IMG/VR virus record: IMGVR_UViG_3300036985_002246
Location: 135,476 to 199,475 of that record
Direction: 5' to 3' (one strand)
Length of the DNA stretch: 64,000 nt
Origin: a virus
In this document: one piece after another, positions 6,014 to 60,700 of the stretch
How the letters are laid out: every line of letters starts with the position of its first letter
Numbering within the stretch: position 1 is the first letter of the stretch
Program-made: the position numbers and the translations under genes
The notes under the pieces: generated by a model
Seen by the model: only the letters and a program-made list of their open reading frames with translations
Database searches by the model: none
Told to the model about the DNA's origin: nothing

Positions 6014-6041
6014 GGTAGAGGGTCTATCGTGGACCCTCTAC
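6014..6041 (+). terminator. Intergenic hairpin GTAGAGGGTC/GACCCTCTAC
   Basis: 10-bp perfect inverted repeat between the genes ending at 5999 and starting at 6113. Confidence 0.5.
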
Positions 6042-6112
6042 GGAGAGGGCTTCGGGCTCTCACATTTCACCCCCGTTCTCTGCGGCGGGTCCATTCTCAG
6101 GGAGACAAGACA

Positions 6113-18582: not shown

Positions 18583-19014
18583 GTGCCGGTCGTACAACTT
18601 TTCCGACCTCAGAGTTCCGGGGACGTGATTCTTCCGGCGTCCATGCCGCCAGGGTATGTGCCCGGCTCGTACCTGAACATGGCCGTGAAGATCGTGGACG
18701 TGCTCGGGGTGCCCACGATCTACCCGTGCATGGCCCAGAAGAACACGGACAGCCCGCAATCGTTCTACGGGATCCTGAAGCAGGACCTCCCGACGGTGAT
18801 CGTCACGGCAGGCAGGGGGGCCGCCACGACTCCGCTCGTCGAGGGGGCGATCCCACTTGTGCCGGACAAGGACGTGTACCTGTCCTCGACCACGCCAGGG
18901 TATGTGACCCAGGCGACGCCCCAATCTTCAGGGACCGTCATGCTCCGGGTCGGGTTCGCCCTTGACGCTGCTCGGGTCATTCTGTCCGGTGACTTCCGGG
19001 TGGACTACTACTGA
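18583..19014 (+). CDS. Putative capsid decoration/cement-like protein
   Basis: DVYLSSTTPGYVTQATP...LRVGFA resembles DUF2190-like decoration folds. Confidence 0.5.
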   Translation: MPVVQLFRPQSSGDVILPASMPPGYVPGSYLNMAVKIVDVLGVPTIYPCMAQKNTDSPQSFYGILKQDLPTVIVTAGRGAATTPLVEGAIPLVPDKDVYLSSTTPGYVTQATPQSSGTVMLRVGFALDAARVILSGDFRVDYY

Positions 19015-19047
19015 GCCTATCAGCAGACCCTGCTAGGAGTCTCGTCC

Positions 19048-19431
19048 ATGTCCAATCTCCGCTCGAAGCTGATCCGCCTGGCCCACCAGAAGCCAGAGCT
19101 TCGGGCTGACTTGCTGCCGCTGCTCAAGTCGGCGAGACCCACGTTCGTGGAGGCCAAGCAGACGATCCTCGACTACCTGGGGGAGCACGGCTGGAAGCTC
19201 TCGGCCCCTGGACTCAAGGTCATGCACGCCACGTCCAAGGACGGGAAGGTGCGCCTCTGGTTCAAGGCACAGGCGGTCTACTTCACCTACAGCACGGGTA
19301 GACACGACTTCGGGGAGGCACACTCCCTTCACAACGACATTCGCTCAATGACCCCAGAGGCGTTCGCAAAGGACGCCGACGAGACCGCCAGGGCTGACCT
19401 CTGGGTGGAACGGGACGCTGAGCGGGGGTGA
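19048..19431 (+). CDS. Tag-bearing small protein (MSNLRSKLIRLAHQKPELRADLLPLLK + unrelated domain)
   Basis: AGGAG SD; shared N-terminal peptide. Confidence 0.8.
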   Translation: MSNLRSKLIRLAHQKPELRADLLPLLKSARPTFVEAKQTILDYLGEHGWKLSAPGLKVMHATSKDGKVRLWFKAQAVYFTYSTGRHDFGEAHSLHNDIRSMTPEAFAKDADETARADLWVERDAERG

Positions 19432-23338: not shown

Positions 23339-24363
23339 GCAGCGCGTACTTCGTAGCGACCCGCTTCCTGACTGCGAAGGTCTGGGTCAACCCGGAGAAG
23401 CTCCTCTCGGCCTACCAGGGGGAGTTGGTTGCCCTCAAGCGGGGGTTCCAGATTGGGTGGAGCAATCAGGGGCTGCGGATCTCTCTGTCCCATGTGCTCA
23501 ACGCAGCCAGGCCACTGGCTGACTGGGTGATCCAGACCCGCTCAATCCCCGCTGGCAAGTCCAAGGCGGTGGAGTTGGCCGCTCGCCTCGTGACGAATAT
23601 CGCCCGTGTGCCGACCGACGCCGTCGCCTGGTACGGGAAGAACTCTGGGAAGCTGGACCTTCTCCTGGAGGCTGCACAGTGGGGCGAGCGGGCGTCAACG
23701 GAGTCCGACGACAACCTGGAGGTCGCCACGGTTGGGCCGTTCAAGGTCCACAACACGATCGGGGCGAACGCCAAGCAACTCGGTGAGATCAAGGGGATCG
23801 TCGAGAACGCAGTCAGGTCACTGGGCACCACCCTCGACTTCAGGAAGGTGCTCTACGGCGACGTGTTCATTGTCGGCCAACTCAAGCAGTCAACCACGCT
23901 CGCTTGGTACTCGGTCACGGAAGACGACGTGTACGTCCGGTCCCTCATGAAGAAGGGGATCGACAGCCTCAAGAGCCTGACCCACGAGCTAGGGCACCGC
24001 TACTGGTTCAAGTTCTTCCCCACCGACGCAAAGCAGAGGGTCCTCAAGCTCTACTACGACCTGGGGAGCCAGCGCCCGGAACTGCCTGACCTGAAGGTGG
24101 GTGACCTCCTCCCAGTGGAGGTCCGTGGGGCGAAGGGTCCGATCACGATCGTCAGCAGGACAGGGCTCACCCTCGGGCTCTCCACAGGTGGTGCCGTGAG
24201 CATGATGGACGTGCAGAAGTTCCTTCGCAACAAGGCGGTCTTCCCGACCGTCTACGCGGCGAAGAACGTCGAAGAGTTCTTCGCCGAGTGCTTCGCGTTC
24301 TACACAATGGGGACGCTCAAGCCTGACCTGGCCGCTCAGTTCGAGGCCGCGATCAAGGGCTGA
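23335..24363 (+). CDS. Zincin-like metallopeptidase (HExxH)
   Basis: LTHELGHRYW and downstream YAAKNVEEFFAECFAFY, as in lethal-factor-like/MPTase domains; GTGA overlap. Confidence 0.8.
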   Translation: MSSAYFVATRFLTAKVWVNPEKLLSAYQGELVALKRGFQIGWSNQGLRISLSHVLNAARPLADWVIQTRSIPAGKSKAVELAARLVTNIARVPTDAVAWYGKNSGKLDLLLEAAQWGERASTESDDNLEVATVGPFKVHNTIGANAKQLGEIKGIVENAVRSLGTTLDFRKVLYGDVFIVGQLKQSTTLAWYSVTEDDVYVRSLMKKGIDSLKSLTHELGHRYWFKFFPTDAKQRVLKLYYDLGSQRPELPDLKVGDLLPVEVRGAKGPITIVSRTGLTLGLSTGGAVSMMDVQKFLRNKAVFPTVYAAKNVEEFFAECFAFYTMGTLKPDLAAQFEAAIKG

Positions 24364-24568
24364 CCTCGACGCGGAGTTCGTCAATGAGGAACCAGCGGTC
24401 GAAACCCCGTGCCTCATTGACCACTCGGGCGTGAGTACCAGCCGCCACTGTGACGACACACCATAGACCAGTGGGTCGCCCCTCGTGAACGTAGGGGGCG
24501 ATCACCTTCTGGCCCACGTCCACATAGTCCAGGGACGTGTACTTGGCGTTCAGGACTAGGTCAGTCAT
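24353..24568 (-). CDS. Small SH3-like hypothetical protein
   Basis: 71 aa beta-rich; overlaps neighbours in an operon-like chain. Confidence 0.55.
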   Translation of the reverse strand: MTDLVLNAKYTSLDYVDVGQKVIAPYVHEGRPTGLWCVVTVAAGTHARVVNEARGFDRWFLIDELRVEVSP

Positions 24569-24753
24569 CGCGACCCCTTGTGGGCGAGGTCAAACGCCTC
24601 GTCTTCCAGCTTCGTGATTCGGGCTCGATTGACCTCGGCGCTGATACCCCCACCGTAGAAGGTCTTGAGCCAGGTGTGGAGGTACTGGTAGCCCCTGTCG
24701 GAGTTGTCTGCCGACGAGTACGGCACGAGCTTGTGCCTAGCAGGCGTGCTCAC
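24565..24753 (-). CDS. Small hypothetical protein (MSTPARHKLVPY...)
   Basis: GTG 24753 overlaps the end of the upstream gene; track start 24945 is likely too long. Confidence 0.5.
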   Translation of the reverse strand: MSTPARHKLVPYSSADNSDRGYQYLHTWLKTFYGGGISAEVNRARITKLEDEAFDLAHKGSR

Positions 24754-25255
24754 GCAGTAGCTCGTCGAGCTTTGCGATCCGCTGGTCGAGGGGGACCCTC
24801 TTGTCCTTGAGGAAGGCGACCACTCCAGCACGCTCGTCCCTGCGCTTCTGGACGCCCGCCTTGCGGTCAGCCTCAGCCTTCCGACTGGCCTCACGCTCCC
24901 GGTAGAAGTCCTCCATGACTTGGGTGTGGTCCACGCCTGCCGCACGGCAGACCTCGTGAATGAGCGCGTGGAAGGTGCGTGCCTCGTCCTTGCTTCCGAT
25001 CAGCAGGTAGCTCCACGCCTGGGAGCCGAAGATTGGGGCGTCGAACCGCTCCTTCAGTGGTGTCTTGTCGTCCTTCTCGACCCACTCGCACTCCCGACCG
25101 GCCTTCACGAGCGCCTTGGCCAGTCCTTCGGTTGCCGGGCCGTAGGAAGGCACCCAGGTCAGGAGGCTCACGATCGCCTTGCGGATACTGGAGTGGCAGT
25201 GGTGCTCGACCACGTCTCCGCAGTCAGGACAGATCACTCGGATTTCCTTGCTCAC
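24737..25255 (-). CDS. Hypothetical protein with CxxC...HxH N-terminus
   Basis: AGGAG SD; GTGA overlap with the upstream gene. Confidence 0.7.
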   Translation of the reverse strand: MSKEIRVICPDCGDVVEHHCHSSIRKAIVSLLTWVPSYGPATEGLAKALVKAGRECEWVEKDDKTPLKERFDAPIFGSQAWSYLLIGSKDEARTFHALIHEVCRAAGVDHTQVMEDFYREREASRKAEADRKAGVQKRRDERAGVVAFLKDKRVPLDQRIAKLDELLREHAC

Positions 25256-25872
25256 AGTGGCGGCTCCTCGTGCTTGTAGGGGGTCAGCTTGACCTTGTAG
25301 AGGCCGACTGAGCAGTCGGGTTCGTCCCAGAGCAGCTTCTCGTCGCCCTGTGGAATGCGAGGGTCGTGGCGATTGAAGTCCAGGGCGCTGGAGAAGCTCC
25401 GAGCGCCCTGGTGCCCGAAGTAGTTGACCTCGTCAACCTGGTGGAAGTCGTCCTCACCATGGGTCTTGATCCGCACCCAGATCGGAGCGTCTGTGGCAAG
25501 TCCCTCGAACTGTGCTGCCGTCAGCACACGTCCGCGTGAAGCCTGAAGCTCACCCTCGACTCGGTACTGGCGGTAGTGGGGGGCCGGGGCTCCCTTGTAG
25601 GTGCGGTCGAAGACCTTCCACTTCGCGAGCCATTCCTCGACCTCGCGTGCAGACCGGTAGGTCTGCGACGTGTCCACGTCGCAGACGAGCTTGCCGTTGC
25701 GGACGAGCCACACGAGGATCTGGAGGCCCTTGCGCCCCTTGCCGACGTTTCGCAGGCGGGTTCCGGGAATGGGTGAGTCCGTGCTCGACCGGCTCGACTG
25801 ACACTCAGCCCGGAGCCCAAGCGCCGGGGTCGCGTTGATCTCTGCTGCGATAGCCTTGAGGGTTCTCGGCAC
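25252..25872 (-). CDS. Two-domain hypothetical protein
   Basis: GGAG SD before GTG 25872. Confidence 0.65.
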   Translation of the reverse strand: MPRTLKAIAAEINATPALGLRAECQSSRSSTDSPIPGTRLRNVGKGRKGLQILVWLVRNGKLVCDVDTSQTYRSAREVEEWLAKWKVFDRTYKGAPAPHYRQYRVEGELQASRGRVLTAAQFEGLATDAPIWVRIKTHGEDDFHQVDEVNYFGHQGARSFSSALDFNRHDPRIPQGDEKLLWDEPDCSVGLYKVKLTPYKHEEPPL

Positions 25873-25873
25873 G

Positions 25874-26047
25874 TCAATCTCCAAGCAGGGTGACGAGGGC
25901 CTCACGGCACACACGCTGACCCGCCTGACGGGTCTTACGCTCAATCGCCCGGTCGTTGCGGCGACGGTTTTTCGCCTTGCTCACGAGCCCCCACGACTTG
26001 TAGGAGCCACCAGCGACACGTTCCTTGCGTCCGACGTTGGTTGCCAT
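25874..26047 (-). CDS. Small Arg/Lys-rich protein (57 aa)
   Basis: GAGGA SD, ATG 26047; first gene after the minus-strand promoter motif. Confidence 0.6.
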   Translation of the reverse strand: MATNVGRKERVAGGSYKSWGLVSKAKNRRRNDRAIERKTRQAGQRVCREALVTLLGD

Positions 26048-26059
26048 GTTCGTCTTCCT

Positions 26060-26098
26060 CACCTATGAAGCGATTGAGCGCCACCTCTTTTCACGTTT
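26060..26098 (-). promoter_or_regulatory. Bipartite promoter-like motif CGTG-N19-CGCTT-N4-GGTG, copy 1
   Basis: Reverse complement AAACGTGAAAAG...ATCGCTTCATAGGTG. Confidence 0.75.
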
Positions 26099-26116
26099 CG
26101 TGCGAAAGATTGAGTG

Positions 26117-26155
26117 GATCGTGTAAAAGGGACCTCCCCACCCGCTTCATGGGTG
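26117..26155 (+). promoter_or_regulatory. Bipartite promoter-like motif, copy 2
   Basis: GATCGTGTAAAAGG...CCCGCTTCATGGGTG. Confidence 0.75.
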
Positions 26156-26169
26156 TAAGGGAGACGAAC

Positions 26170-26385
26170 ATGACGACCTGCCACGAGATCCCCAAGGGCT
26201 GCGAAGAGTGCGACGGCGAGGGTTGCGACAAGTGCTGCGAGCGGGACGACCTGGAAAACTACGCGGACTCGGCTCTCGCGGACGCAGACGCAGACGACAT
26301 GGACGGGGACGCGGGTTCGGCGCTCGCGTCGGCTGGCTTCGGCACCGACGAGGACTACGGGGGCTTCAGTGACTTCGACGATTGA
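26170..26385 (+). CDS. Small Cys-rich, highly acidic protein
   Basis: GGGAG SD; CEEC/CDKC pairs then a D/E-rich tail DGDAGSALASAGFGTDEDYG. Confidence 0.75.
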   Translation: MTTCHEIPKGCEECDGEGCDKCCERDDLENYADSALADADADDMDGDAGSALASAGFGTDEDYGGFSDFDD

Positions 26386-26516
26386 ACGTCGAAGCCGTCG
26401 GCGCAGACCTGCACCACTCCCCACCAAGCGGACCGTGGGAGGGGACGTGCTCACCTCCCTTCTCATGTGGGCCGTCATTGCCCTCTGCTGGTTCTCAGTC
26501 CACTCCTGAGGTCGCC

Positions 26517-26843
26517 ATGAAGCTCACCGAGTACGTCGTCTTCGTGTCCTGGTTCGACGAGCTTGCTACGCTCGTCCTGGACGCCTCCTCACCTGAGGAG
26601 GCTGTTGCTATGGCGAAGGACGCCATGGAGAAGCGCGTCCGGGACAAGGGCACCGAGTGCAAGTGGTCCGAAGCAGACACTGAGGAGCGTGTCGCCCGGT
26701 ACAGGAACGGCTACGAGTACAGGGCGAGCACGACGGCGAAGATCCTCGCAAACAGCAGCAAGGCCCCCGTCGAACGGAAGCGCCTGCTGGAGACGCTCAA
26801 GTCCTGGCGCGAGCCACGGCTCCCCACGGGCTGCCCGTATTGA
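26517..26843 (+). CDS. Hypothetical protein
   Basis: GAGG SD before ATG 26517. Confidence 0.65.
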   Translation: MKLTEYVVFVSWFDELATLVLDASSPEEAVAMAKDAMEKRVRDKGTECKWSEADTEERVARYRNGYEYRASTTAKILANSSKAPVERKRLLETLKSWREPRLPTGCPY

Positions 26844-26852
26844 AGGAACCCC

Positions 26853-27116
26853 ATGGCCGACAAGAGAACAGTTCCGGCGTTCGCAGTCTTCCTCTCCGGC
26901 ATTTTCATGCACGGCAAGGAAGAGCCCAACTCCAACTTCGGGGCGCTCGGGCCGCTCGCGGTGTTCGCACGCGAGATCGACGCCAAAAACTACGTCAAGT
27001 GTGGCCGGAGGCAGGGGTTCCTTCCCCCAGGTAAGGGGAAGGGTCTCCCGAAGGTCACAATCGTTCAGGTCGAGATCGCAGTCCCGGAGGCAGCGTTCTC
27101 CCCTGAGTGGTTGTGA
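26853..27116 (+). CDS. Hypothetical protein
   Basis: AAGGA SD; 87 aa. Confidence 0.6.
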   Translation: MADKRTVPAFAVFLSGIFMHGKEEPNSNFGALGPLAVFAREIDAKNYVKCGRRQGFLPPGKGKGLPKVTIVQVEIAVPEAAFSPEWL

Positions 27117-27148
27117 CCTGCTTGATCCGCCTATCGGCCTGCTCCCGT

Positions 27149-27421
27149 ATGACTTCCCTCAAGCTCGCTCTCCTTCTCGCTCTCTCAATCACAGTTCTCG
27201 GCTGCGACTCCACGCCCGCCCCCACGCCCGTGGACGCAGCCGTGGTGGTGGACGCTGGCGACCTCTCCGACGCAGCCGACGTTGGTGTTGCTGACGACGC
27301 AGCGGCTGACGACTCTGGCACCGTCGAGGACGCAGGCACCGTCGAGGACGCTGCGGTCGCGGACGACGCAGGGTCAGTCGAGGACGCTGGCGAGATCGAC
27401 GCGGCGACCGACGCAGGTTGA
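27149..27421 (+). CDS. Small acidic lipoprotein with DAG repeats
   Basis: Signal peptide ending VLGC; repeated xxEDAG units. Confidence 0.75.
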   Translation: MTSLKLALLLALSITVLGCDSTPAPTPVDAAVVVDAGDLSDAADVGVADDAAADDSGTVEDAGTVEDAAVADDAGSVEDAGEIDAATDAG

Positions 27422-27429
27422 CCTGCTGG

Positions 27430-27468
27430 AATCGTGAAAAGGTCGTTCTCCCACCCGCTTCTAGGGTG
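27430..27468 (+). promoter_or_regulatory. Bipartite promoter-like motif, copy 3
   Basis: AATCGTGAAAAGG...CCCGCTTCTAGGGTG. Confidence 0.75.
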
Positions 27469-27917
27469 TGAAGAGCCTCGTCATTCTCGTCGGTGCTTCT
27501 GGCTCTGGGAAGTCCTCCTGGTGCCGTGGTCACCCAGGACCGGCTGTGGTCTGCTCGGCAGACGACGGGCTCATTGACCCGGACGGCGTGTACAGGTACG
27601 CCCCTGAGAAGCTCGGGGCAGCACACTCGGCCTGCATGGAGAAGGCGCGTGGCGCAATGGTGAGGGGTGTGTCCCTCGTCGTGATCGACAACACGAACAC
27701 GCGCATTTCCGAGATCGGGCGCTACCTCAATCTCGGGGACCAGTTCGAGTACAGCCCTCAGATCTTCGTGTTCGACTCGGAGCGCAACCCGGAGGTCCTT
27801 GCTGCCAGGAATCAGCACGGGATCCCCGCCTTTGCGATCCGGAAGCAGCTTGATCGGATCGGCTACACGCTGGACAACTGGCCTGAGTCGTTCCCGCTGT
27901 TTCGACGAATCGTGTAA
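27468..27917 (+). CDS. AAA_33-type P-loop kinase (polynucleotide-kinase-like)
   Basis: Walker A GASGSGKS, VVIDNTN, RNxH lid. Confidence 0.85.
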   Translation: MKSLVILVGASGSGKSSWCRGHPGPAVVCSADDGLIDPDGVYRYAPEKLGAAHSACMEKARGAMVRGVSLVVIDNTNTRISEIGRYLNLGDQFEYSPQIFVFDSERNPEVLAARNQHGIPAFAIRKQLDRIGYTLDNWPESFPLFRRIV

Positions 27918-27946
27918 AAGGGTCTCCCCCGCCCGCTTGTAGGGTG
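27908..27946 (+). promoter_or_regulatory. Bipartite promoter-like motif, copy 4
   Basis: AATCGTGTAAAAGG...CCCGCTTGTAGGGTG, overlapping the kinase stop. Confidence 0.75.
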
Positions 27947-27958
27947 GAGGACCCGTCC

Positions 27959-28768
27959 ATGCGCTACAGATACATGATCGTCTCGGCCCTACTCCTGTGG
28001 GCCACCCCCCTGCAAGCACAGGCTCCGACGCCTCTCGAAGAGGCTCGTGCTCTCTTTGCTAGGGGCGACACGGCGTTCAACGAAGCTCGGTGGATCGATT
28101 GCGCCCACCTGTTCGAGCGGAGCTTCACGATCGCTTTCCGCCCCGAGCTTCTCTACAACGTCGGCCTCTGCTACCAGCGGGCGGCGGGTGCTCTGCCGGA
28201 CGAGCAGGCTGCACCGCTCCTGGGCCGGGCGGTGGCTGCCTTCCGGCGCTACCTGCGCGAGGTTCCTGCTGCGACCAACGCGGAGCGGGTCCAGACGGCG
28301 GTGGCCGACATTCAGGCTCGGCTCGACAGCATGGACCCCGCTGTCAGCCCAGTCACGGAGGTCACTGCACCGCCTGTGAGGGAGGTCGCTCCGGTCGTAC
28401 CTGAACCTGACTCGGTGGTTGTGGGGGACCCAATCCCCACGCCAGCGCCCGTGACGGTGGCCCGCAACGACTACACGCTCACGATCGTCACGGGGGCGTT
28501 GACCCTCGTCTCGACGGCACTCGCAATCGGGCTTGGACTCCACGCGCAGTCGCTCTACTCGGACCTCTCCTCGACGTGCGGTCAGACCCCGGCAGGTTGC
28601 AACGAAGCTCGGATCTCGGAGGTAGGCTCGTACTCGCTCGCCACGAACCTCCTGTGGGTCGTCTCTGGTCTTGCCCTTGTCGGAACTTCAATCAGCTTCG
28701 CAATCGAGTTCACAGCGACAGACACGCGACCCTCCTTGGTCGCCCTCACGGTGGGAAGGACCTTCTGA
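27959..28768 (+). CDS. Exported TPR protein with C-terminal membrane helices (myxobacterial-type)
   Basis: Signal peptide; TPR EARALFARG...PELLYNVGLCY; two TM helices with a CxxxxxxC loop. Confidence 0.8.
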   Translation: MRYRYMIVSALLLWATPLQAQAPTPLEEARALFARGDTAFNEARWIDCAHLFERSFTIAFRPELLYNVGLCYQRAAGALPDEQAAPLLGRAVAAFRRYLREVPAATNAERVQTAVADIQARLDSMDPAVSPVTEVTAPPVREVAPVVPEPDSVVVGDPIPTPAPVTVARNDYTLTIVTGALTLVSTALAIGLGLHAQSLYSDLSSTCGQTPAGCNEARISEVGSYSLATNLLWVVSGLALVGTSISFAIEFTATDTRPSLVALTVGRTF

Positions 28769-29295
28769 TGCGCTACCTACTGACGACGGTCCTGATCCTC
28801 ACGTCCGGGTGTGCCTTCGACGTTGCAGGGCTTCATGGAACGGGAGTGCTCGACGACGCTGGCCCAATGACGGGCGATACTGGTCCTGAAGTGGACGCAG
28901 GCTCCGAAGTGGACGCAGGTCCAACGCTCGTGGACTCCGGTTCCGAAACCGACGCAGGACTGGACTCTGGATCTGACGTGGACTCCGGCTCAACTGAGGA
29001 CGGGGGTTCAACCGGGCCGACTTGCTGCCTGCCAGAGCGTGTCCTGCCCTCACCTGTACCCTGTCACCTGTTCACGGACGGCACGTCTGACTGCTGCGAC
29101 GGGCTCCTGTGCTACGGCAGCGGTGGGTGCGTGCTGCCCACTGGTGGTGGTGGACGGCTTGGCTCCCTATGTCTTGACGGAGGCGACGGTCCCGACGGCG
29201 GGCGTCTGCTGCTCTGTGTCACGGCGACCACTTGCAACATGGACACTGGAATGTGCGTCGTGGACCCCACGCACGTCACCCTGCTTCAGTGCTAG
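28768..29295 (+). CDS. Lipoprotein with DAG/DSG repeats and Cys-rich C-terminus
   Basis: Lipobox LTSGC; TGATG overlap; Cys-rich knot-like tail. Confidence 0.75.
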   Translation: MRYLLTTVLILTSGCAFDVAGLHGTGVLDDAGPMTGDTGPEVDAGSEVDAGPTLVDSGSETDAGLDSGSDVDSGSTEDGGSTGPTCCLPERVLPSPVPCHLFTDGTSDCCDGLLCYGSGGCVLPTGGGGRLGSLCLDGGDGPDGGRLLLCVTATTCNMDTGMCVVDPTHVTLLQC

Positions 29296-29317
29296 TCGAT
29301 AGGATTGGAGGTGCGCA

Positions 29318-30013
29318 ATGAAGACCAAGTACCCTCGGACCTTCCACCTCCCGTGGAGTGAAGGCGCGACCGACGACGACAAGACGCATGACCAGGAGAC
29401 CGTCGAGCGAATGTTCGGCGGCAAGCAGGTCATTGTCACCGAGAAAATGGACGGGGAGAACACCACGATCTACTCGACGGGGGAGTGCCATGCGCGGAGC
29501 CTCGACTCGGCTGGACACGCCTCGCGGGACTACGTTCGCGGCAAGGCCCGTGAGGTGGGCTGCGCAGGGTTCCCTGAGGGTTGGCGTCTCATGGGGGAGA
29601 ACCTCTACGCCAAGCACTCAATCGAGTACGACCTGCTCCCCGACTACTTCGTGGTCTTCGGGGTTGCAGACGCCTCGAACATGGCTCGGCCCTGGTCTGA
29701 GGTCGAGGAATGGGCAGACCTTCTGGGCCTGCCCGCTGCGCCTGTTCTCTGGCAGGGCACCTGGGACACGAAGAAGGTCATGTCCCTCTACCCGTTCAAG
29801 TCCCTTCTGACCTCCACCGGAACGAGCGAGGGGTACGTCGTGAGGGTCGCGGGCTCATTCCCAATGAGCAGCTTCGACAAGCACGTCGCGAAGTTCGTGC
29901 GGGCCAAGCACGTTCAGACGGACCAACACTGGATGCACCAGCAGGTCACGCCCAACAAGCGCGTCACGACCTCGGCTGAGCAGGTCGTGGAGAGAGTTCT
30001 TGGCTCTCGCTAG
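29318..30013 (+). CDS. ATP-dependent RNA ligase
   Basis: KYPRTFHLPWS, motif I TEKMDG, GENL, FVVF, EGYVV, KFVR; GGAGG SD. Confidence 0.9.
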   Translation: MKTKYPRTFHLPWSEGATDDDKTHDQETVERMFGGKQVIVTEKMDGENTTIYSTGECHARSLDSAGHASRDYVRGKAREVGCAGFPEGWRLMGENLYAKHSIEYDLLPDYFVVFGVADASNMARPWSEVEEWADLLGLPAAPVLWQGTWDTKKVMSLYPFKSLLTSTGTSEGYVVRVAGSFPMSSFDKHVAKFVRAKHVQTDQHWMHQQVTPNKRVTTSAEQVVERVLGSR

Positions 30014-30055
30014 GGCTCCTATCCAGGTCGCAGATTGTGACCTGGATAGGAGCCC
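30013..30055. terminator. 17-bp perfect inverted repeat
   Basis: GGGCTCCTATCCAGGTC / GACCTGGATAGGAGCCC directly after the ligase stop. Confidence 0.7.
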
Positions 30056-30096
30056 CTCTCCACGCTCCCCCTCGCCGCCCCTTCAAGTGAGGGCGC

Positions 30097-30480
30097 ATGA
30101 GCCGCCCCCGATCCCCACCGCCCCCGGCCCCCTACGTGGTCGAGTTCTGGCGGGAGACAGTCAAGCGCGGAGGGGCCTTCGCAACTGTTCCCGGTGGTCG
30201 CGTCCTCCGGCACGGTCGCCGGTACGTCCCGCATTTCCGTGGACCCAGCACTCAGAGCGTAGACCCGAACACGTTCTATATGTCAGAGTTCTCCTCTGCA
30301 CGGGCGCGGCCTTGGCAGAAGTTCCGGGTGTGTTACTACAACCCCCTGACGGGTGCTCGGTCGGCTCTGTCGGCTGAGACGATTGTTGTGATTGGTACTG
30401 CTTCGACAGACCAGATCCGCACCTACGGGGTAGGGCGGAACCCGGCGCACGTCGCTGGCTCGGTGGTGATCAAGCGGTAG
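30097..30480 (+). CDS. Hypothetical basic protein bracketed by two structured elements
   Basis: GAGG SD; 127 aa. Confidence 0.55.
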   Translation: MSRPRSPPPPAPYVVEFWRETVKRGGAFATVPGGRVLRHGRRYVPHFRGPSTQSVDPNTFYMSEFSSARARPWQKFRVCYYNPLTGARSALSAETIVVIGTASTDQIRTYGVGRNPAHVAGSVVIKR

Positions 30481-30588
30481 ATTGGAAGTGGACCCCTGCT
30501 ACGGTGGCTTCAAGGTTGCCCTCTGGCAGCCTCAAAGTGTCCCCCCGGAGACTTCAAAGCCACCCTAGGAGGGGTTCACTTCCCAATC
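30480..30588 (+). ncRNA. Candidate structured RNA (or ssDNA) element: three-way junction
   Basis: ~30-bp closing stem plus two 8-bp hairpins, with CA linkers at all three junction strands. Confidence 0.6.
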
Positions 30589-30643
30589 ATTGGGGGCTAG
30601 GTCAGGTTCTCGGGCCGGTGCGTAAAGATCCCACAGAGGATCA

Positions 30644-33097
30644 ATGCCCACCACCGAAAACACAAAGTTCTCCCTTCGCAACTTCTCCGGCAAGCCCACC
30701 AAGCACTTCCGCGTCGAGCGGGACGACCTGACGGGCCAGGCCCCTGTCGCCAAGAAGACGCCCTCCCACCACATTCTCGTGGTGGACCGGTCGGGCTCCA
30801 TGTACGGCGACCTCCCCGACCTGAAGACCATGGTCGAGAAGCTCCTGACGCTCGGCGAGTTCGACGACCCGACGCTCCGGGTCAGCCTCGTCAGCTACTC
30901 GTCCCAGGGTGACGTGAAGCTCCACTTCAGCCGCGTCACCGTCGCCGACGTGATGAAAGCGTCGAGCCCGTACCTCAAGGAGATCCGTGCGATCCGTGCG
31001 ACCGCCATGACCTGTATCTCCCAGGGGCTCGTCATGGCCGAGACGGTGATCGACGACAAGGAGACGACCTGCGTCACCCTCCACACGGACGGCTTCGCGA
31101 ACGACGCCTCCCCGTCGGCAGAGGCCCGCACGATCGCTGCGACCGTCGAGAAGCTCAAGAAGCACCCCAACCTCTTCGTCAACACGATCGCCTACCGCGA
31201 CTGGTGCGACTTCAATCTGCTCTCCTCGATCAGCAACGCGCTCTCCGGCGCGTGTATCCAGGCCAAGAGTATCAAGCAGGTCTACGAGGCGCTCTACAAC
31301 GCGACGGCGCTGCTCGCGGGCTCCATGGCCCCGGCGATCGAGGCGTCGGTCGGCAACGCCGACTATATTGCCTTCGTCTCCAAGTCCGCCCGCAAGGTGC
31401 TTGGGTCGGAGGACAACCTCGTGGTCCGTGGTCTCGGCTCGACCGACGACCGCTCGGTCTACCGCTACTTCGAGGTCACGGAGGCTGAGTACGCGAAGCT
31501 CTCGTGCCCCGAGACGCTCGGCTCGGCGTCGGCGGACGCAATCGCGACCTACTGCCGGGCGCAGATCAGCGAGGGCCACCACAACACGGCCAAGTACGCG
31601 CTCGTCGCCATGAAGAGCGACACGCTCCTGAACTCGCACTACCGGGCGCTCGTCTCGTCGGACGTGGCGACCTTCGCGGGTGCGGTCGAGGACACGCTGT
31701 TCTCGGCCACGGCGTACCCGCTGGCTGCGGACTACGGCCTCGCGGCGAAGGGTCCGTCGGTTCTGAAGGTGCTCTCGGTCCTCGACCAGCACTCGAAGTC
31801 CCTGAGCGTCAACCTGAAGGTGCTGCTCGCTGGTTACAAGCGGCGCGGGCTCAAGAAGGTGCCTGGGGTTCGCCTCGAAGACGGTACGCTCCAGGTGCCG
31901 ACCGTCGAGTCCCGCTACCGCACGGCGAACGAGGAGTGGGTCACGGTCAACGGGTTCGAGTTGAACCGCAACACGGCCACCGTGAATATGCTCGTCTCGC
32001 AGCCGATCGACCTCTTCCCGCACGGCGGGAACGCTCGGATCGCCTCCGTCTCCGGCGTGGGTCTGGACGGCCTCAAGTCGTTCAACAACTACACGCTCGT
32101 GAGCGACGGCTCGCTGAACGTGGGGCAGATCATGCTCAAGACCTCGGACAAGCGGTGCTTCCGCGAACTGAAGGACCTGGGCGTCGTCACGGGTGAGTAC
32201 GCTCCGGGCGTGGTCTTCGCGATCGACTTCTCGAACCTCCCGCTCGTGGACTTCGAGGCGAGCTTCGACACGGTGGCCCCGGACGAGGTTCGTGACCTCG
32301 CGAAGCTCACGGTCCTCTCGAAGATCCTCTCTGGCATGACCAAGGGGGAATCGACGGCCATGACTTCGGAGCAGATCGCCGAACTCAAGAAGCACTACCT
32401 GACCCCGGCGCTCTACTTCTCGCCCCCGACGACCGGAGAGCACGCCAATCTCCAGGACGCAATCGCCCAGGGCAAGATCGACACGCGGCTCTCGTACAAG
32501 ATCGACGTGGGTATCCCGGCGCTGACCTCGGTGTCGAAGCTGAAGTCGGGCAACGAGTACCTCCAGCGTCGGTTCACGTCGTCGTTCCACGGCAAGCCGG
32601 TCGAGAAGTCGAACCTCCAGGAGATCCTCCTCCCCGGCACGACCTGGGAGGTGAAGAAGCTCACCGCCCGCACCCAACTCGACGAGGTGGACGCCCTCTC
32701 GTTCCCAATCTACGAGGGTGTCCTCGGGACCGGGGCGACCGCCGAAGTCGAGCGCGTCCTCAAGCTCGCCGGACACGAGGACCCCAAGGGCTTCCTCAAG
32801 AGCCTCTCGGGTGACCACGAGGCTGCGGTCGCCTCGGTCACGGACGCGCTGCGGCTCGTGGACGGCATGATCGAGTCGTTCTACGACCGGATCCGCCCCC
32901 TCGCCTTCTACATTGGGGCAACCGGGCTGGTCCCGGATTCGCTCAATGCGAAGGCGTCCGCTGCCGAAGCGTTCGCGACGCAGTTTCCGGAGGCCAAGCT
33001 CTCGAAGGCGGAGAAGGAGGACGGCACCTTCTTCACGCTCCCGAACGGGCTCGTGGTGACGGTGTTCGTGAAGGGCGAGTACTTCACGGTCTCCTGA
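30644..33097 (+). CDS. vWA-domain protein with a large C-terminal region of unknown function
   Basis: MIDAS motif VVDRSGSM and LHTDG; GAGGA SD; 817 aa. Confidence 0.88.
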   Translation: MPTTENTKFSLRNFSGKPTKHFRVERDDLTGQAPVAKKTPSHHILVVDRSGSMYGDLPDLKTMVEKLLTLGEFDDPTLRVSLVSYSSQGDVKLHFSRVTVADVMKASSPYLKEIRAIRATAMTCISQGLVMAETVIDDKETTCVTLHTDGFANDASPSAEARTIAATVEKLKKHPNLFVNTIAYRDWCDFNLLSSISNALSGACIQAKSIKQVYEALYNATALLAGSMAPAIEASVGNADYIAFVSKSARKVLGSEDNLVVRGLGSTDDRSVYRYFEVTEAEYAKLSCPETLGSASADAIATYCRAQISEGHHNTAKYALVAMKSDTLLNSHYRALVSSDVATFAGAVEDTLFSATAYPLAADYGLAAKGPSVLKVLSVLDQHSKSLSVNLKVLLAGYKRRGLKKVPGVRLEDGTLQVPTVESRYRTANEEWVTVNGFELNRNTATVNMLVSQPIDLFPHGGNARIASVSGVGLDGLKSFNNYTLVSDGSLNVGQIMLKTSDKRCFRELKDLGVVTGEYAPGVVFAIDFSNLPLVDFEASFDTVAPDEVRDLAKLTVLSKILSGMTKGESTAMTSEQIAELKKHYLTPALYFSPPTTGEHANLQDAIAQGKIDTRLSYKIDVGIPALTSVSKLKSGNEYLQRRFTSSFHGKPVEKSNLQEILLPGTTWEVKKLTARTQLDEVDALSFPIYEGVLGTGATAEVERVLKLAGHEDPKGFLKSLSGDHEAAVASVTDALRLVDGMIESFYDRIRPLAFYIGATGLVPDSLNAKASAAEAFATQFPEAKLSKAEKEDGTFFTLPNGLVVTVFVKGEYFTVS

Positions 33098-33135
33098 ATC
33101 GTGAAGTGTCCGGGTCCCCAATCGCTTCCAGGGTG
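33097..33135 (+). promoter_or_regulatory. Bipartite promoter-like motif, copy 5
   Basis: AATCGTGAAG...ATCGCTTCCAGGGTG, starting at the vWA stop. Confidence 0.7.
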
Positions 33136-33146
33136 AGGACCCAGAC

Positions 33147-33461
33147 ATGACACTGCGAGAGAAGCCAGAAGCAGGCTGGAACCCGCGATTCGTACTGTGG
33201 TGCGAGTCTCGCGGCTTCCAGCCTGATTCGTTTGACCGGGCTGAGGGCGAGGACATGAAGCTCGTCGAGCATGGCGACGGGAAGCAGTATCCGTGGACGC
33301 TCGTGTTCTCCGACTGGATCAAAGCCCAGTGGAAGGAGTGGGCTCACTCGATCGGGTTCAAGGACAGCAACTTCTGGCAAGCTCACCGGCTGGCCCAGGC
33401 TGCTGGTCACGGTCCCGCAGAGTTCGACGCCTGGCTTCGGCTGAAGGTCAAGGGAGCCTGA
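33147..33461 (+). CDS. Trp-rich hypothetical protein
   Basis: GAGGA SD; 104 aa. Confidence 0.7.
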   Translation: MTLREKPEAGWNPRFVLWCESRGFQPDSFDRAEGEDMKLVEHGDGKQYPWTLVFSDWIKAQWKEWAHSIGFKDSNFWQAHRLAQAAGHGPAEFDAWLRLKVKGA

Positions 33462-56503: not shown

Positions 56504-57736
56504 ATGGCAGACCCAGTCAGAATTCAGCCAGCCAGGTTCTTCGAGCACCTCCCGACGGCGCAGAACTACGAGCGTGAGTACGAGGTCCAGGACACGATCC
56601 CGATCGACGGGGCGAAGGCGAGCCTCAAGTCGTTCTCGCCGTTCGTCATGCGGGTGCTCCCCCCCATGATCCTCGGGAACACCTTCAACACCCTCGGGGT
56701 TTCGCAATCTCGTGCGACGCCGCTCGACGGGTCGGTGGCTACGACCACTCCTCGCGCAGACTACGCTGGGGCGATCCGGGGGCTCAATCAGCGGAGGTCA
56801 GCCTCTGAGGCCACCTACCAGGACGACGTGAACCGGGGGACAGCGATTCCCGGAATGTCCAGCGCGACCGCCCGCGACATTGACGAGTACGTCTCGAACT
56901 CGGCCAGGAACCAATCGATCTCGCCGAACGTCCCGGCTTCGAGCCATATCCGGATCGTCCCGGCGATCTCCAACGACGCCTCGGCGCTCTCGATCCTGCT
57001 GCAACTCGTGCAAATGCGGGAGATCCCACCGATCTGCCTGTATATCAACCCAACGACCTTCTCGGTCAACCACGCGAAGATCGCGCAGTTCCAGGAGCGG
57101 TCCCGCTACGGGTACGTCTACCAGGCGTGGGGCGAAGAACTCACGAAGGTCAGCTTCTCCTGCATGATTGGTGCGTACATTGCGGGCCATGGGAACCGCT
57201 CGCAGACCGGGGTAGCCACGGGCGTCCAGCGGGCCTCGAAGAGGGACTCAGCCAGCTTCCAGCAACTCATGTCTGTCTTCTCCCTCTACCAGAGCAGCGG
57301 CTACATTCAGGACACGACCGCGAACTCGACGGGTCGGCGGTCCCTGGCGAACCTGCTGGTCGGCAACACCTCGATCGAGTACGACCAGACCGTGTACGTC
57401 GGGCACATGGACTCGTTCTCGTACTCGGAAGAAGACACCCAACAGAACGGCGGCCTCAAGTTCGACATTGAGTTCACCGCAGTCAGGGTCTACGACGTGG
57501 CCCAGCCGCAGTCGTCGATCGCCCCTGAGAACTCCCCCAGCAACTTCTACAACCCGGCCTCGGGCGTCTCCCCCTCCAGCGGGTCAAGGCTCTCCAGGAC
57601 GTTCAGGGGGTCGGGGCCGACCCAGTTCCTCACCGCACCCACGGTCGGCGGTGCTCCGGCTCAGCCCTGGTCCGGGGCCGCAGCAGGCACACCCTCAGCG
57701 ACCGGTAGCGTGATCACGACTCGGCGGACACCGTGA
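56504..57736 (+). CDS. Tube-initiator / baseplate tube-like protein 2
   Basis: LYINPTTFSVNHAK...YVGHMDSFSYSEE...KFDIEF, paralogous to 55833. Confidence 0.7.
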   Translation: MADPVRIQPARFFEHLPTAQNYEREYEVQDTIPIDGAKASLKSFSPFVMRVLPPMILGNTFNTLGVSQSRATPLDGSVATTTPRADYAGAIRGLNQRRSASEATYQDDVNRGTAIPGMSSATARDIDEYVSNSARNQSISPNVPASSHIRIVPAISNDASALSILLQLVQMREIPPICLYINPTTFSVNHAKIAQFQERSRYGYVYQAWGEELTKVSFSCMIGAYIAGHGNRSQTGVATGVQRASKRDSASFQQLMSVFSLYQSSGYIQDTTANSTGRRSLANLLVGNTSIEYDQTVYVGHMDSFSYSEEDTQQNGGLKFDIEFTAVRVYDVAQPQSSIAPENSPSNFYNPASGVSPSSGSRLSRTFRGSGPTQFLTAPTVGGAPAQPWSGAAAGTPSATGSVITTRRTP

Positions 57737-60700
57737 GCATTGTCAATCGCCCCTACGCTGGAACGTGGAATCCGAACCAGCGGAAGATCATTCAGTACAC
57801 GCCGGACGCGCTCGTCTACCTGAACGGTGACACGGGCATGGCGGGGTGCCAGACCTGCCACCACCGGATCGACATACAGCAGTTCGTCACGTCGATCTCG
57901 GTGGACGCTGGCGTGGACCCTGGGGCTAGCTCGTCGAGTATCACCCTCTCGATCCCCAGGCACTACGGGGACTCAATCTTCAGGGACGGGAACACGATTC
58001 TCCGCAACGGGTTGGAGGTCCAGGTCTACTTCCGTGGGTACTTCCCCATGACCGGAATGGCTGACCCGGACGCGGACCCAGAGTCCAACGTCGTCGCTGG
58101 GGTCAACCTCTCGGACATTCCCCAGTACCCCTACTACCCCGTGTTCCATGGGGTGGTCACGGGCGTCTCCCACGAGTACTCGGGAGGCTACTACTCGGCG
58201 TCGCTGACCTGCTCGGGAATGCTGCACTTCTGGCAGTATATGCAGATCGCCTCGAACGGGGCCTTCTTCGGAGCCCGTCCGAACAACTCGGGGGTCAGGA
58301 CCAGTCTTCGGGGGCACGTCTTCACGGGCATGAGCCCCTTCTCGATTATCTACGCCCTCTACCAGAACACTCTGGGTGCTGCGGCGGGCGTCGGGTTTGC
58401 GCTCCAGAGCCGCACGAATATGCAGGCGGTCTCGACCGCTACGGGCGACTCCAGCTACGCAATGGTCCAGCAGTACTGGGAGCGGCGGTTCCTTCAGGGA
58501 ATGTACCGGCTCAGAATGCACGGGGCGTCAGGCCAACTCTTCTCTGGCTCGACGCAGGCGTACCTCTCCAGGCTCGGCGGACGGGACGCTCGGATCCTCT
58601 CGGTCGTCACAGGCAACAACCGTAGCGAGCGTGACCCTCTAGCCTCTAGCGCGGAGGAGTTCAACCTGATCGACCGGGACGGGGCAGGCCGGATCAATCG
58701 TGGTGCCGACCTGCGCTTCACGGCTGGGTCAGGTGGCGGTGCGCGAGACTACGGTGTGGTCGTCCCGCAAATGCAGGCGTTCGTCAACGACATTTCCCAA
58801 TGGGGTCAGGTCAACCTCTTCGAGACGACCTACGAGAGCAAGCTCGACGTTGCCACTCAGGTCTCGAATATCTGCGGCTACGAGTTCTACCAGGACATGG
58901 ACGGGGACCTGGTGTTCAAGCCGCCCCTCTACAACCTCGACACGTCCTCGTCGAGGATCTACCGGCTTGAGCCGGAAGACATTGTCTCGATCTCCTTCAC
59001 TGAGTCCGAGCCGGAGGCCACCTACGCCACCGTGAGTGCGGGTCCGTTCCAGAATATGCGTGGGGCTGTGGACGAGGCCGAGTTTGGCGTCCGGGCCACC
59101 TACTACGACTACCGGCTGATCGCCCAGTTCGGCTGGCGTGAAGGCTCACTGGAGTCGAACTACTACTCGAACGCTCGGTCGGCCTTCTACGCAGCGGTCG
59201 CGAACCTCGACAAGCTCAATCAGGGCATGAACTCGGCCTCGGTCACGATCCCGCTTCGGCCTGAGATCCGCCAGGGCTTCCCTGTCTACATTCCTCACAT
59301 TGACTGCTTCTACTACGTCCAATCGGTCAGCCACGCCTTCTCCTACGGAAGCGCCTGCACGACGACGCTGAACCTGATCGCTCGCCGTCGGAAGTTCATT
59401 CCTCCGGGGAACCCTGACGTTCCAGGGATCCGGGGTATCACCCTCGAACAGACGACGAATCCCCCGAAGCCGGTCCAGTACCTCGACAACAGCAACATTC
59501 CTCGGGTCCTCGGCTTCCCGAACGTCGTCCTGGCGCTCGACCCAGAGCGGATCAACCCACTGTTCTTCGTCTTCGGTTTGGACTCTGAGGAGGACCGCAG
59601 TCGAGCGACCGGCGCGACCAGGCAGGCTCGCAGGGAACTCCTTGCGTCGAACTTCGCTCAGATCCTCGTGGACCAGAACGTCATTGGCGTTGGGACACCC
59701 CCTCCCGCCCCAGCGGACCCTACTGCAATCAGTCCGGAGACCTCGGCAGCGGTGGACGCAGCCCTTGCGTCTTTTGATTCAGCAGGTGGGTCTACCACCC
59801 CCTCTGCCACCACCCCCTCCGCCCCGACTGCGCCTGCCCCCACGGCAACGGCAGCGGCGGTTGACTCTGCCGCCCCTGCCACCACATACACGAGCCGCGA
59901 GAGTGTGATCGTTGGCCCATGGATAATCCTGGTCGCTGACCGTCTGAACCAGACCGTCACCTCCACACAGTTGAGGGAGGGTCTGTCGTCTCTCATTGAC
60001 GAGCGGACGAGCAGTCGCTCGCGTGTTCGAGAGATTGACACTGAGATCCAACGGCTGGAGCACAGGATCCAGCAGCCTGGGGCGTCAGCAGAAGTCATTT
60101 CGACGGCCTCAGCCTCGCTTACTACCCTTCGCGCAGAGGCTGAGACGCTGAACGGCTTCCTGATCGGGAACACCACCACTGGCAGCCACAGCGCCCTGTC
60201 TGAGGACGCGGCCCTCGTGAACTACCTCCTCAGTCAGATCCGTCAGAGGAACCCGAGCACGGCCAGTCGGGACATGAGCGTTGACGCCACAGGGACGATC
60301 AACAACTCGACGAACCTGCTCGACCTTCTTGGGGACCGGAAGGCTGCCATGGGGATCAACACCCCCGGCTACTACCGGTACTACTCGTCGGCTCACCCGA
60401 ACCCCAATCAACAGGGGTACACGCCACTGGCAACCACGGATACGACCGGTGTGGCTTCAGACAGTCCTTCGGAGACGGGCACGCCCGAGAGTCTTGCTCA
60501 AGCGGACCGGGACAGCACCAGGTCTGTTGCAATCAGCCCGGCGAGGAGGGCCGAACTGGAGAGTCAGATTGCCAGCCTCAACGCGAATATCACCCAAATG
60601 GGTGAGTTCGTGGCCCTAGATATCAACCCACAATCTGACCTCGACGCCCTCAGGGCACAGAGGACCTCGCTTGCCTCCCAACTGAGTGCAGGCATTGCGG

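Follow-up and report, generated by a model that had tools for sequence, protein, structure and literature searches.

The 64,000-nucleotide (nt) stretch of viral DNA analysed here, hereafter the window, comprises positions 135,476 to 199,475 of IMG/VR record IMGVR_UViG_3300036985_002246, the last 64 kb of a 199,475-bp contig with a guanine-plus-cytosine (GC) content of 63.7%. It carries five copies of a bipartite 40-nt element which very probably represents a phage-specific class of promoters, fused to the starts of the genes behind them. On balance, this element is likely to be read by a divergent sigma factor of 268 amino acids encoded by the phage itself and resembling the extracytoplasmic function (ECF, group 4) sigma factors of bacteria. 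Positions below are counted from the first letter of the window or, where so stated, of the contig.

Anatomy and placement of the element

The original prediction had described five copies with a distance of exactly 19 nt between CGTG and CGCTT and of 4 nt between CGCTT and GGTG, and all five are found where it placed them, with precisely this spacing. A pattern search of the window gave five matches without a mismatch, against 0.19 expected, and none of 100 shuffles reached five. The copies, which were also scored with a position weight matrix (PWM), are as follows.

26059 to 26098, minus strand: promoter copy 1, left half of a divergent pair; exact pattern match, PWM score 46.1; predicted +1 at 26060, ATG of the first gene at 26047; a positional orthologue with CGTTT in relatives.
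26117 to 26156, plus strand: promoter copy 2, right half of the divergent pair; pattern, PWM and orthologue comparison; predicted +1 at 26155, ATG at 26170.
27430 to 27469, plus strand: promoter copy 3; pattern match and PWM; predicted +1 at 27468, the first base of the GTG start of a gene for a kinase-like protein, so that a leaderless mRNA is predicted.
27908 to 27947, plus strand: promoter copy 4; pattern, PWM and orthologue comparison; predicted +1 at 27946, ATG at 27959.
33097 to 33136, plus strand: promoter copy 5, abutting the stop codon of a gene for a vWA-domain protein; pattern, PWM and orthologue comparison; predicted +1 at 33135, ATG at 33147.

Three copies had been said to start at or within about 10 nt of the preceding stop codon, and this is borne out: the site at 27430 begins 9 nt after the TGA at 27419-27421, the TGA of the vWA gene (33095-33097) adjoins the site at 33097, and the TAA of the kinase gene (27915-27917) lies inside the CGTGTAAA of the site at 27908. 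In this last case the stop codon falls within the -35 box of copy 4, coding sequence and promoter overlapping by 10 nt. The element is longer than first noted, as it begins with an A-T/A-C prefix, contains a C-rich run ending in a near-invariant C 4 nt before CGCTT, and continues directly after GGTG into a ribosome-binding site and a start codon.

The anatomy of the element was derived from 84 unique sites taken together from this contig and related ones, the first A of the prefix being counted as position 1. Positions A2, C4, T6, G7, A9, A10, C23, C27, G28, T30 and T31 are invariant or nearly so, and G36, G37, T38 and G39 are mostly invariant as well. The sequence of positions 12-22 varies and holds little information, while the length of this segment is constant in all 84 sites. 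Mutual information is confined to neighbouring columns, and the lack of long-range covariation gives no indication of a hairpin; together with the lack of any Rfam family match, this ruled out a reading of the motif as an RNA element.

The whole-genome PWM scan that the original prediction had proposed identified 23 sites in the contig, 22 strong and one weak, 17 occurrences matching the exact pattern. The reversed-sequence control gave nothing above a score of 16, leaving a clean gap to the background. The motif is far from equally frequent in coding regions, since all 23 sites are intergenic even though about 87% of the contig is called coding (gene calls by codon bias). Every site points into a co-oriented gene or RNA, five pairs being divergent, and in the presence of a ribosome-binding site GGTG is usually followed by the start codon after 7-15 nt. 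The sites are confined to 13-63 kb and 161.5-168.6 kb of the contig and are missing from its long plus-strand blocks. No sigma-70 consensus promoter was found between 24 and 35 kb of the window, in agreement with the earlier remark that the motif does not match the sigma-70 consensus.

The fusion of the element to start codons also suggests where transcription begins. Among genes without a ribosome-binding site, three unrelated families start exactly at motif position 39: the kinase-like gene in the window (GTG at 27468), a gene at contig position 13739, and a third family, represented in the related contig G003 and three metagenome contigs, in which GGTG is replaced and an ATG occupies positions 39-41. 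For the kinase-like gene an in-frame TAG at 27462-27464 precludes any earlier start, its AAA_33 domain begins at residue 4, and the arrangement is kept in two relatives (G001 and L044). Leaderless translation requires a start codon at the 5' end of the mRNA, and the +1 is therefore most simply placed at position 39, the final G of GGTG, with a margin of 3 nt either way. CGCTT would then lie at -12 to -8 and TCGTGWAAA at -36 to -28, the canonical geometry of promoters of the sigma-70 family. The predicted promoter would thus consist of a -35 box TCGTGWAAA (-36 to -28), a spacer of constant length in which a C at -16 is conserved, and a -10 box CGCTT (-12 to -8), and its mRNA would either be leaderless, opening with the start codon itself, or carry a ribosome-binding site in a leader of 11-16 nt.

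Matched variation in the -10 box and a candidate phage sigma factor

Comparative analyses were performed against a 37.7-kb contig syntenic with the window at 68-87% nucleotide identity (G001), a 60-kb contig with 12 motif sites (G003) and about 35 related metagenome contigs, mostly from sediment and of 60-62% GC; the sister lineage with this GC content is about 75-88% identical in nucleotides to the present phage (contig G000). G003 had been flagged as a provirus, and no host flank was found in it, its first 20 kb comprising a giant protein and a methylase. Among deposited sequences the closest relative is LR745208.1, a 485-kb uncultured phage of 55% GC whose vWA protein is 62% identical to that of the window; no recognisable version of the motif was found in it, nor in L005/G002 (51% GC), which are likewise related through the vWA protein, and k-mer and dyad counts on L003 gave nothing clear. 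Metagenome matches with a single low score at 37-56% GC were counted as chance.

The -10 box is CGCTT in 34 of the 34 unique sites of G000 and G003, as against CGTTT in 49 of 50 sites of the sister lineage. When 15 positional orthologues were paired between the two lineages by BLAST, all 15 differed at this one base. That so many paralogous promoters underwent the same base change would be difficult to account for without a change in the factor reading them, and the concerted switch thus implies, as far as comparison of sites can tell, a co-evolving reader. A candidate for this reader is encoded near the start of the contig.

Contig 316 to 1122, outside the window: ECF-like sigma factor of 268 amino acids, with Sigma70_r2 and a C-terminal helix-turn-helix (HTH).

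The Pfam region 2 match covers residues 109-172 and the HTH residues 231-256. The AlphaFold model shows two helical domains with a predicted local distance difference test score above 90 behind a disordered N-terminus of 100 amino acids, and its best structural matches are, with few exceptions, sigma factors, mainly of the ECF type; the complex of phiEco32 gp36 (9m7y) is also among its structural neighbours. A family profile could be aligned with the sigma-H structure 3mzy across both domains. As modelled, the protein is laid out like ECF (group 4) factors, a linker connecting its only two domains, sigma-2 and sigma-4. Metagenomes yielded 281 homologues of it, many of them encoded on very large contigs; some of these homologues were named sigma-24 by the Joint Genome Institute.

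The sigma orthologue of the sister lineage (P0002/P0123) is 75% identical overall. In the sigma-2 core of about 85 residues only five substitutions separate the two lineages, one at the N-terminal edge and four in a single loop between helices 122-138 and 150-176, which reads LGKCPFDAS in this phage and LGTCPFNVA in the sister lineage. Positions 138, 140, 145 and 146 of this loop are highly variable among 62 homologues within an otherwise invariant frame. By its position, the variable loop corresponds to the specificity loop with which ECF factors read the -10 element. In bacterial ECF sigmas this loop holds the flipped-out -10 base; these factors demand exact boxes and a rigid spacer, and CGTT is common as their -10 element (PMC6411747). 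The sigma with the NVA loop is, moreover, physically linked to the CGTTT lineage, a link that rests on exact protein identity: a protein of 76 amino acids encoded after a CGTTT site (L016, L078 and L079) recurs as an exact copy on 18-kb and 52-kb contigs that carry the NVA sigma.

Four more distant sigma lineages, of about 50% identity, also have repeated intergenic sites of the same architecture and register, each with boxes of its own, and here the differences in the -35 box go with differences in the C-terminal domain of the sigma.

L080: sigma loop DVR; boxes GTGTAG with CGT(A/T)A, nine sites.
L082: sigma loop DER; boxes CGTGTA with CGTTAC.
L084: sigma loop DAR; boxes TGTAAG with CGTT.
L083: sigma loop DVK; GGTAA-N16-CGTT, close to the textbook ECF consensus.

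The original prediction of a regulon dedicated to an alternative sigma factor or a phage RNA polymerase is thus supported. Of its two options the alternative sigma is favoured because of the bipartite geometry, the presence of an ECF-like sigma in the phage, the concerted change that tracks this sigma, and the fact that no phage polymerase gene was detected. The element would then be read by the RNA polymerase core of the host together with the 268-residue protein, which probably is the sigma in question.

A sequence of events may also be envisaged. A motif-free stretch of several hundred bases lies upstream of the sigma gene wherever there is enough flanking sequence (G000, L064, L080, L083 and L084). 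About seven tandem copies of a 16-nt unit are found at the very start of the contig (1-110), and a block some 200 nt before the sigma gene is conserved in L064. Elsewhere, at 111330-112401 of the contig, a NusG/KOW-like open reading frame (ORF) is directly followed by the gene for a protein of 207 amino acids (111778-112401) whose only match is to sigma region 4, in its N-terminal half. A homologue of this protein is encoded in L080 as a second sigma-like gene, with region 4 only, inside a motif-driven operon. From the motif-free bases before the sigma gene and this region-4 gene in L080, the inferred timing would be a cascade running from some first promoter to the 268-residue sigma, from there to the motif regulon, and on to later factors. 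The sigma, behind its long motif-free region, would be expressed first and would then switch on 23 or more motif-bearing units, with small accessory genes, small RNAs, and genes for repair and for chaperones. The 207-residue protein and its NusG-like neighbour would possibly form a later-stage transcription module.

Several points weigh against this assignment. The Sigma70_r2 scores lie at the threshold (22.6 bits for the protein and 24.7 bits in six-frame translation, for a cut-off of 24), the match to TIGR02937 reaches only 17.8 against a cut-off of 42.9 (E 0.002), and the Foldseek E-values are weak (0.01-0.8), although this is expected as the two domains are free in their relative orientation. 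The link between sigma and motif is correlative, consisting of one clean contrast (DAS versus NVA) and of co-occurrence, and other phage factors could co-vary in the same way; the region-4 protein with its NusG-like neighbour at 111.3-112.4 kb of the contig is one such factor at hand. The contig represents only about 45% of the genome according to CheckV, more than half being missing, which leaves room for an unseen polymerase. LR745208.1 carries a 37%-identical sigma but no recognisable motif. The proposed start site, finally, is deduced from leaderless start codons, which in the more distant lineages are found at position 42, 3 nt further downstream.

Alternative readers, inversions and downstream units

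The promoters could instead be read by a sigma factor of the host, either an unusual host's housekeeping sigma or an ECF sigma of the host which the phage exploits. This would suit the early or accessory look of the downstream genes, the resemblance of the -10 box to the ECF element CGTT, and the fact that phages usually begin with the host holoenzyme. The scan of bacterial genomes with the PWM, another check that had been proposed, points the other way: among 185,579 bacterial and archaeal species, each represented by one genome, the motif is multi-copy in none, and only eight scattered single matches were found, which is chance level. A host reader would furthermore need to have changed in step with the exchange of C and T that separates 15 orthologous sites of phages about 80% identical, and it would leave the separate box variants of each phage sigma lineage unaccounted for. 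A TAnnnT-type element (GGTAGAGT) located 5-6 nt before GTG starts in other intergenic regions fits a host -10 box better. Reading by a host sigma is thus unlikely.

A second possibility, likewise unlikely, is a promoter of a sigma-free RNA polymerase encoded by the phage, be it single-subunit, virion-packaged or divergent multisubunit, whose gene went undetected or lies in the missing 55% of the genome. The conservation of the element continues through the predicted start site, as in T7-type promoters, the contig is incomplete, and giant proteins without a family match do exist (1779 amino acids in the window, 3647 in G003). No match to PF00940 or PF00562 was found in G000, G001 and G003 being searched with PF00562 only, and the PF00940 search for a T7-like polymerase also found none in control genomes. 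The layout of the element also speaks against such a polymerase: two boxes at predicted -35 and -10 distances, separated by a variable spacer of fixed length, are the signature of a two-domain sigma and not of a contiguous phage polymerase promoter, and all lineages examined have a sigma family to match.

A sigma-type promoter might also be read by another phage factor, namely the 207-residue region-4 protein or an activator acting with the host sigma. A second sigma-like gene is indeed present, and factors evolving together in the same genomes cannot be told apart by correlation. However, the 207-residue protein, with its region-4 match only, has no region 2 with which to read a -10 box, the location of its L080 homologue within a motif-driven operon makes it a more probable product than reader of the regulon, and a -10 box so unlike TAnnnT renders a host sigma with an activator improbable. 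This reading is considered quite unlikely.

The original prediction had further proposed that the motif serves as a recombination handle for the exchange of accessory genes, and had suggested examining whether cassette boundaries in relatives coincide with it. Rearrangements were sought by BLAST of G000 against all sister-lineage contigs. Two inversions were found, with colinear flanks in both cases.

Contig 18932 to 19318: inversion 1, a promoter and a gene for 100 amino acids, flipped in L016, L038 and L051.
Contig 28706 to 30232: inversion 2, a promoter, a tRNA-like RNA and genes, flipped in six contigs.

The first was confirmed by a nucleotide-level check and by 55% protein identity of the flipped gene. 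Both inversions break within the -35 boxes of two promoter copies that face outward and are inverted relative to each other, and to this extent the proposal is supported; inverted promoter copies would, as a side effect, have served as breakpoints for the inversion of cassettes. The exchange of accessory genes is, on the other hand, not tied to the motif, as only 5 of 60 gain, loss or replacement events abut a site, where 18 of 103 intergenic gaps (about 17%) carry one. As judged from these alignments, the promoters are breakpoints of inversions and not general cassette borders. That the repeats are in the first place sites of recombination or mobile-cassette ends, their promoter look being secondary, is very improbable in spite of the two inversions, given the strict orientation and start-codon distance at all sites, the 15 sites kept at orthologous positions, the few indel or replacement events that touch a site, and no recombinase association seen.

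The units that follow the five promoter copies in the window, all predicted to be driven by them, are given below.

24353 to 26047, minus strand: unit of copy 1, five small genes of 57 to 206 amino acids (codon-bias calls), the first without a Pfam match.
26170 to 27421, plus strand: unit of copy 2, four small genes of unassigned function.
27468 to 27917, plus strand: unit of copy 3, a single gene for a P-loop kinase-like protein (AAA_33), with a GTG start and predicted to be leaderless.
27959 to 33097, plus strand: unit of copy 4, a gene for 269 amino acids, more small genes, and the vWA-domain protein of 817 amino acids (30644-33097).
33147 to 33461, plus strand: first gene in the unit of copy 5, 104 amino acids.

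The kinase-like protein matches Pfam PF13671 over residues 4-116 (E 1.9e-11). That each unit consists of a promoter plus one to four genes, as had been claimed, is roughly true within the window, but elsewhere units reach more than ten genes. The motif-driven units are mostly runs of small genes of unassigned function; the named products are a DNA ligase, an RlaP RNA-repair protein, a chaperonin, the AAA_33 kinase and the vWA protein of the window, and an AAA_5 ATPase with a vWA/CobT-like partner is also encoded. Some sites are followed by a structured RNA instead of an ORF, one of them the tRNA-like RNA. Structured sequence devoid of ORFs was observed after promoter copies at contig 28723, 32667, 39799 and 62639, in G003 at 35114, in L084 at 12584 and in L080 at 16213, and some of these sequences have a short cggt...agaaag string in common. 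The regulon thus seems to include a family of small RNAs.

In G001 (6025-6054) the gene corresponding to that for 104 amino acids is cut down to a mini-ORF of nine codons behind the same, intact promoter. The first seven and the last two codons are kept, as is the stop/start overlap with the next gene, so that, as read from the alignment, this is a clean in-frame internal deletion with preserved translational coupling.

The large proteins of the window received almost no names from PHROGs and Pfam. One of them, of 1779 amino acids (57733-63072), gave a weak muramidase hit near residue 1300, and neither a family nor a PDB sequence was matched; a DMDGD string near its residue 390 was dismissed, its frequency being within chance expectation and a PDB sequence match lacking. 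The protein of 3647 amino acids encoded by G003 is without any match.

Two further short elements recur in intergenic regions. About eight copies of G(G)TAGAGT(CC) are found, among them those at 617, 7999, 34537 and 49410 of the window and at 25829, 42678 and 54497 of the contig; in three copies outside the window a GTG start lies 5-6 nt downstream, once just after a terminator-like hairpin. The element looks like a TAnnnT-type -10 box for leaderless genes and is possibly a candidate host-type promoter class. The other, GCGTAAGG(T), is present in 15 copies (contig 1364-134688), located 4-8 nt before many start codons in intergenic regions without the motif, and could be an extended ribosome-binding site or another -10-like element.

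Comparison with known systems

As a kind, the system proposed here is already known, since phage-encoded sigma factors with private promoters have been described in Salmonella phage 7-11, whose gp47 reads GTAAtg-N16-aCTA, and in phiEco32, with gp36 (PMC8948821, PMC12276001). In these phages an ECF-like two-domain sigma redirects the host core to conserved promoters unlike those of sigma-70, as would be the case here, and the bipartite consensus, fixed spacer and GTAA-type -35 box of phage 7-11 are shared. The present sigma differs in having no close sequence relation to theirs, in its N-terminal extension of 100 amino acids and in its occurrence in giant uncultured phages. Its units look early or middle and accessory, whereas those of 7-11 and phiEco32 are late and structural, and its promoter, known from sequence, is fused to a ribosome-binding site or a leaderless start. 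In the literature searched there appears to be no description of the sigma family, its spread among giant phages, the retuning of one base or the fusion to starts that are leaderless or have a minimal leader. For a giant phage that otherwise is nearly unannotatable, the element would provide a transcription map of co-switched units, probable mRNA starts and leaderless genes, and for the sigma-like proteins widespread in metagenomes it suggests a role that can be tested.

The promoters of bacterial ECF (group 4) factors are of the type GGAAC-N16/17-CGTT (PMC6411747). Stringent boxes, a rigid spacer, a CGTT-like -10 element and a base recognised by sigma-2's specificity loop are features in common, and the GGTAA-N16-CGTT of L083 comes closest. 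The differences are a -35 box without the AAC core, a CGCTT box at -10 in the lineage of the window, a sigma only marginally recognised by ECF models, and no anti-sigma partner seen. Box variants paired with loop changes represent a natural experiment on how ECF-type factors read the -10 element and a possible source of orthogonal sigma/promoter pairs.

The comparison made in the original prediction, with the shuffling cassettes of T4-type phages, fails on two defining features. Their promoter early stem-loops (PeSLs) join a sigma-70-like promoter to a terminator stem-loop (PMC2839356, PMC4122927), while the present promoter (TCGTGWAAA/CGCTT) is not sigma-70-like and has no stem-loop. Between 24 and 35 kb of the window terminator-like sites are not above chance and none lies beside a motif site, and the distance of 0-9 nt from stop codon to motif leaves no room for one. 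Many near-identical promoter copies among small accessory genes in plastic regions, some at rearrangement breakpoints, are common to both systems; however, exchange at PeSLs proceeds by indels, replacements and mini-circles, and here only inversions track the repeats. This limits the idea of promoters as shuffling handles, which here accounts for inversions but not for the gain or loss of genes.

Tentatively, and as a reading of compared genomes, this clade of giant uncultured phages may hold a natural series of matched sigma/promoter pairs, in which a loop change of two or three residues from DAS to NVA retuned one -10 base from C to T genome-wide, while the same 40-nt promoters, fused to leaderless or minimal-leader starts, would act as inverted repeats that flip promoter-gene cassettes. 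A parallel to such a series is found in the T7 group. The reader there is a single-subunit polymerase, acting on one contiguous promoter block of about 20 bp, whereas here the element is bipartite and no such polymerase was found in the search of G000. In closely related phages of the T7 group a few promoter positions have changed together in every copy, with corresponding changes in a specificity loop of the reader, and the concerted change of promoter and specificity loop proposed here would be a feature in common.

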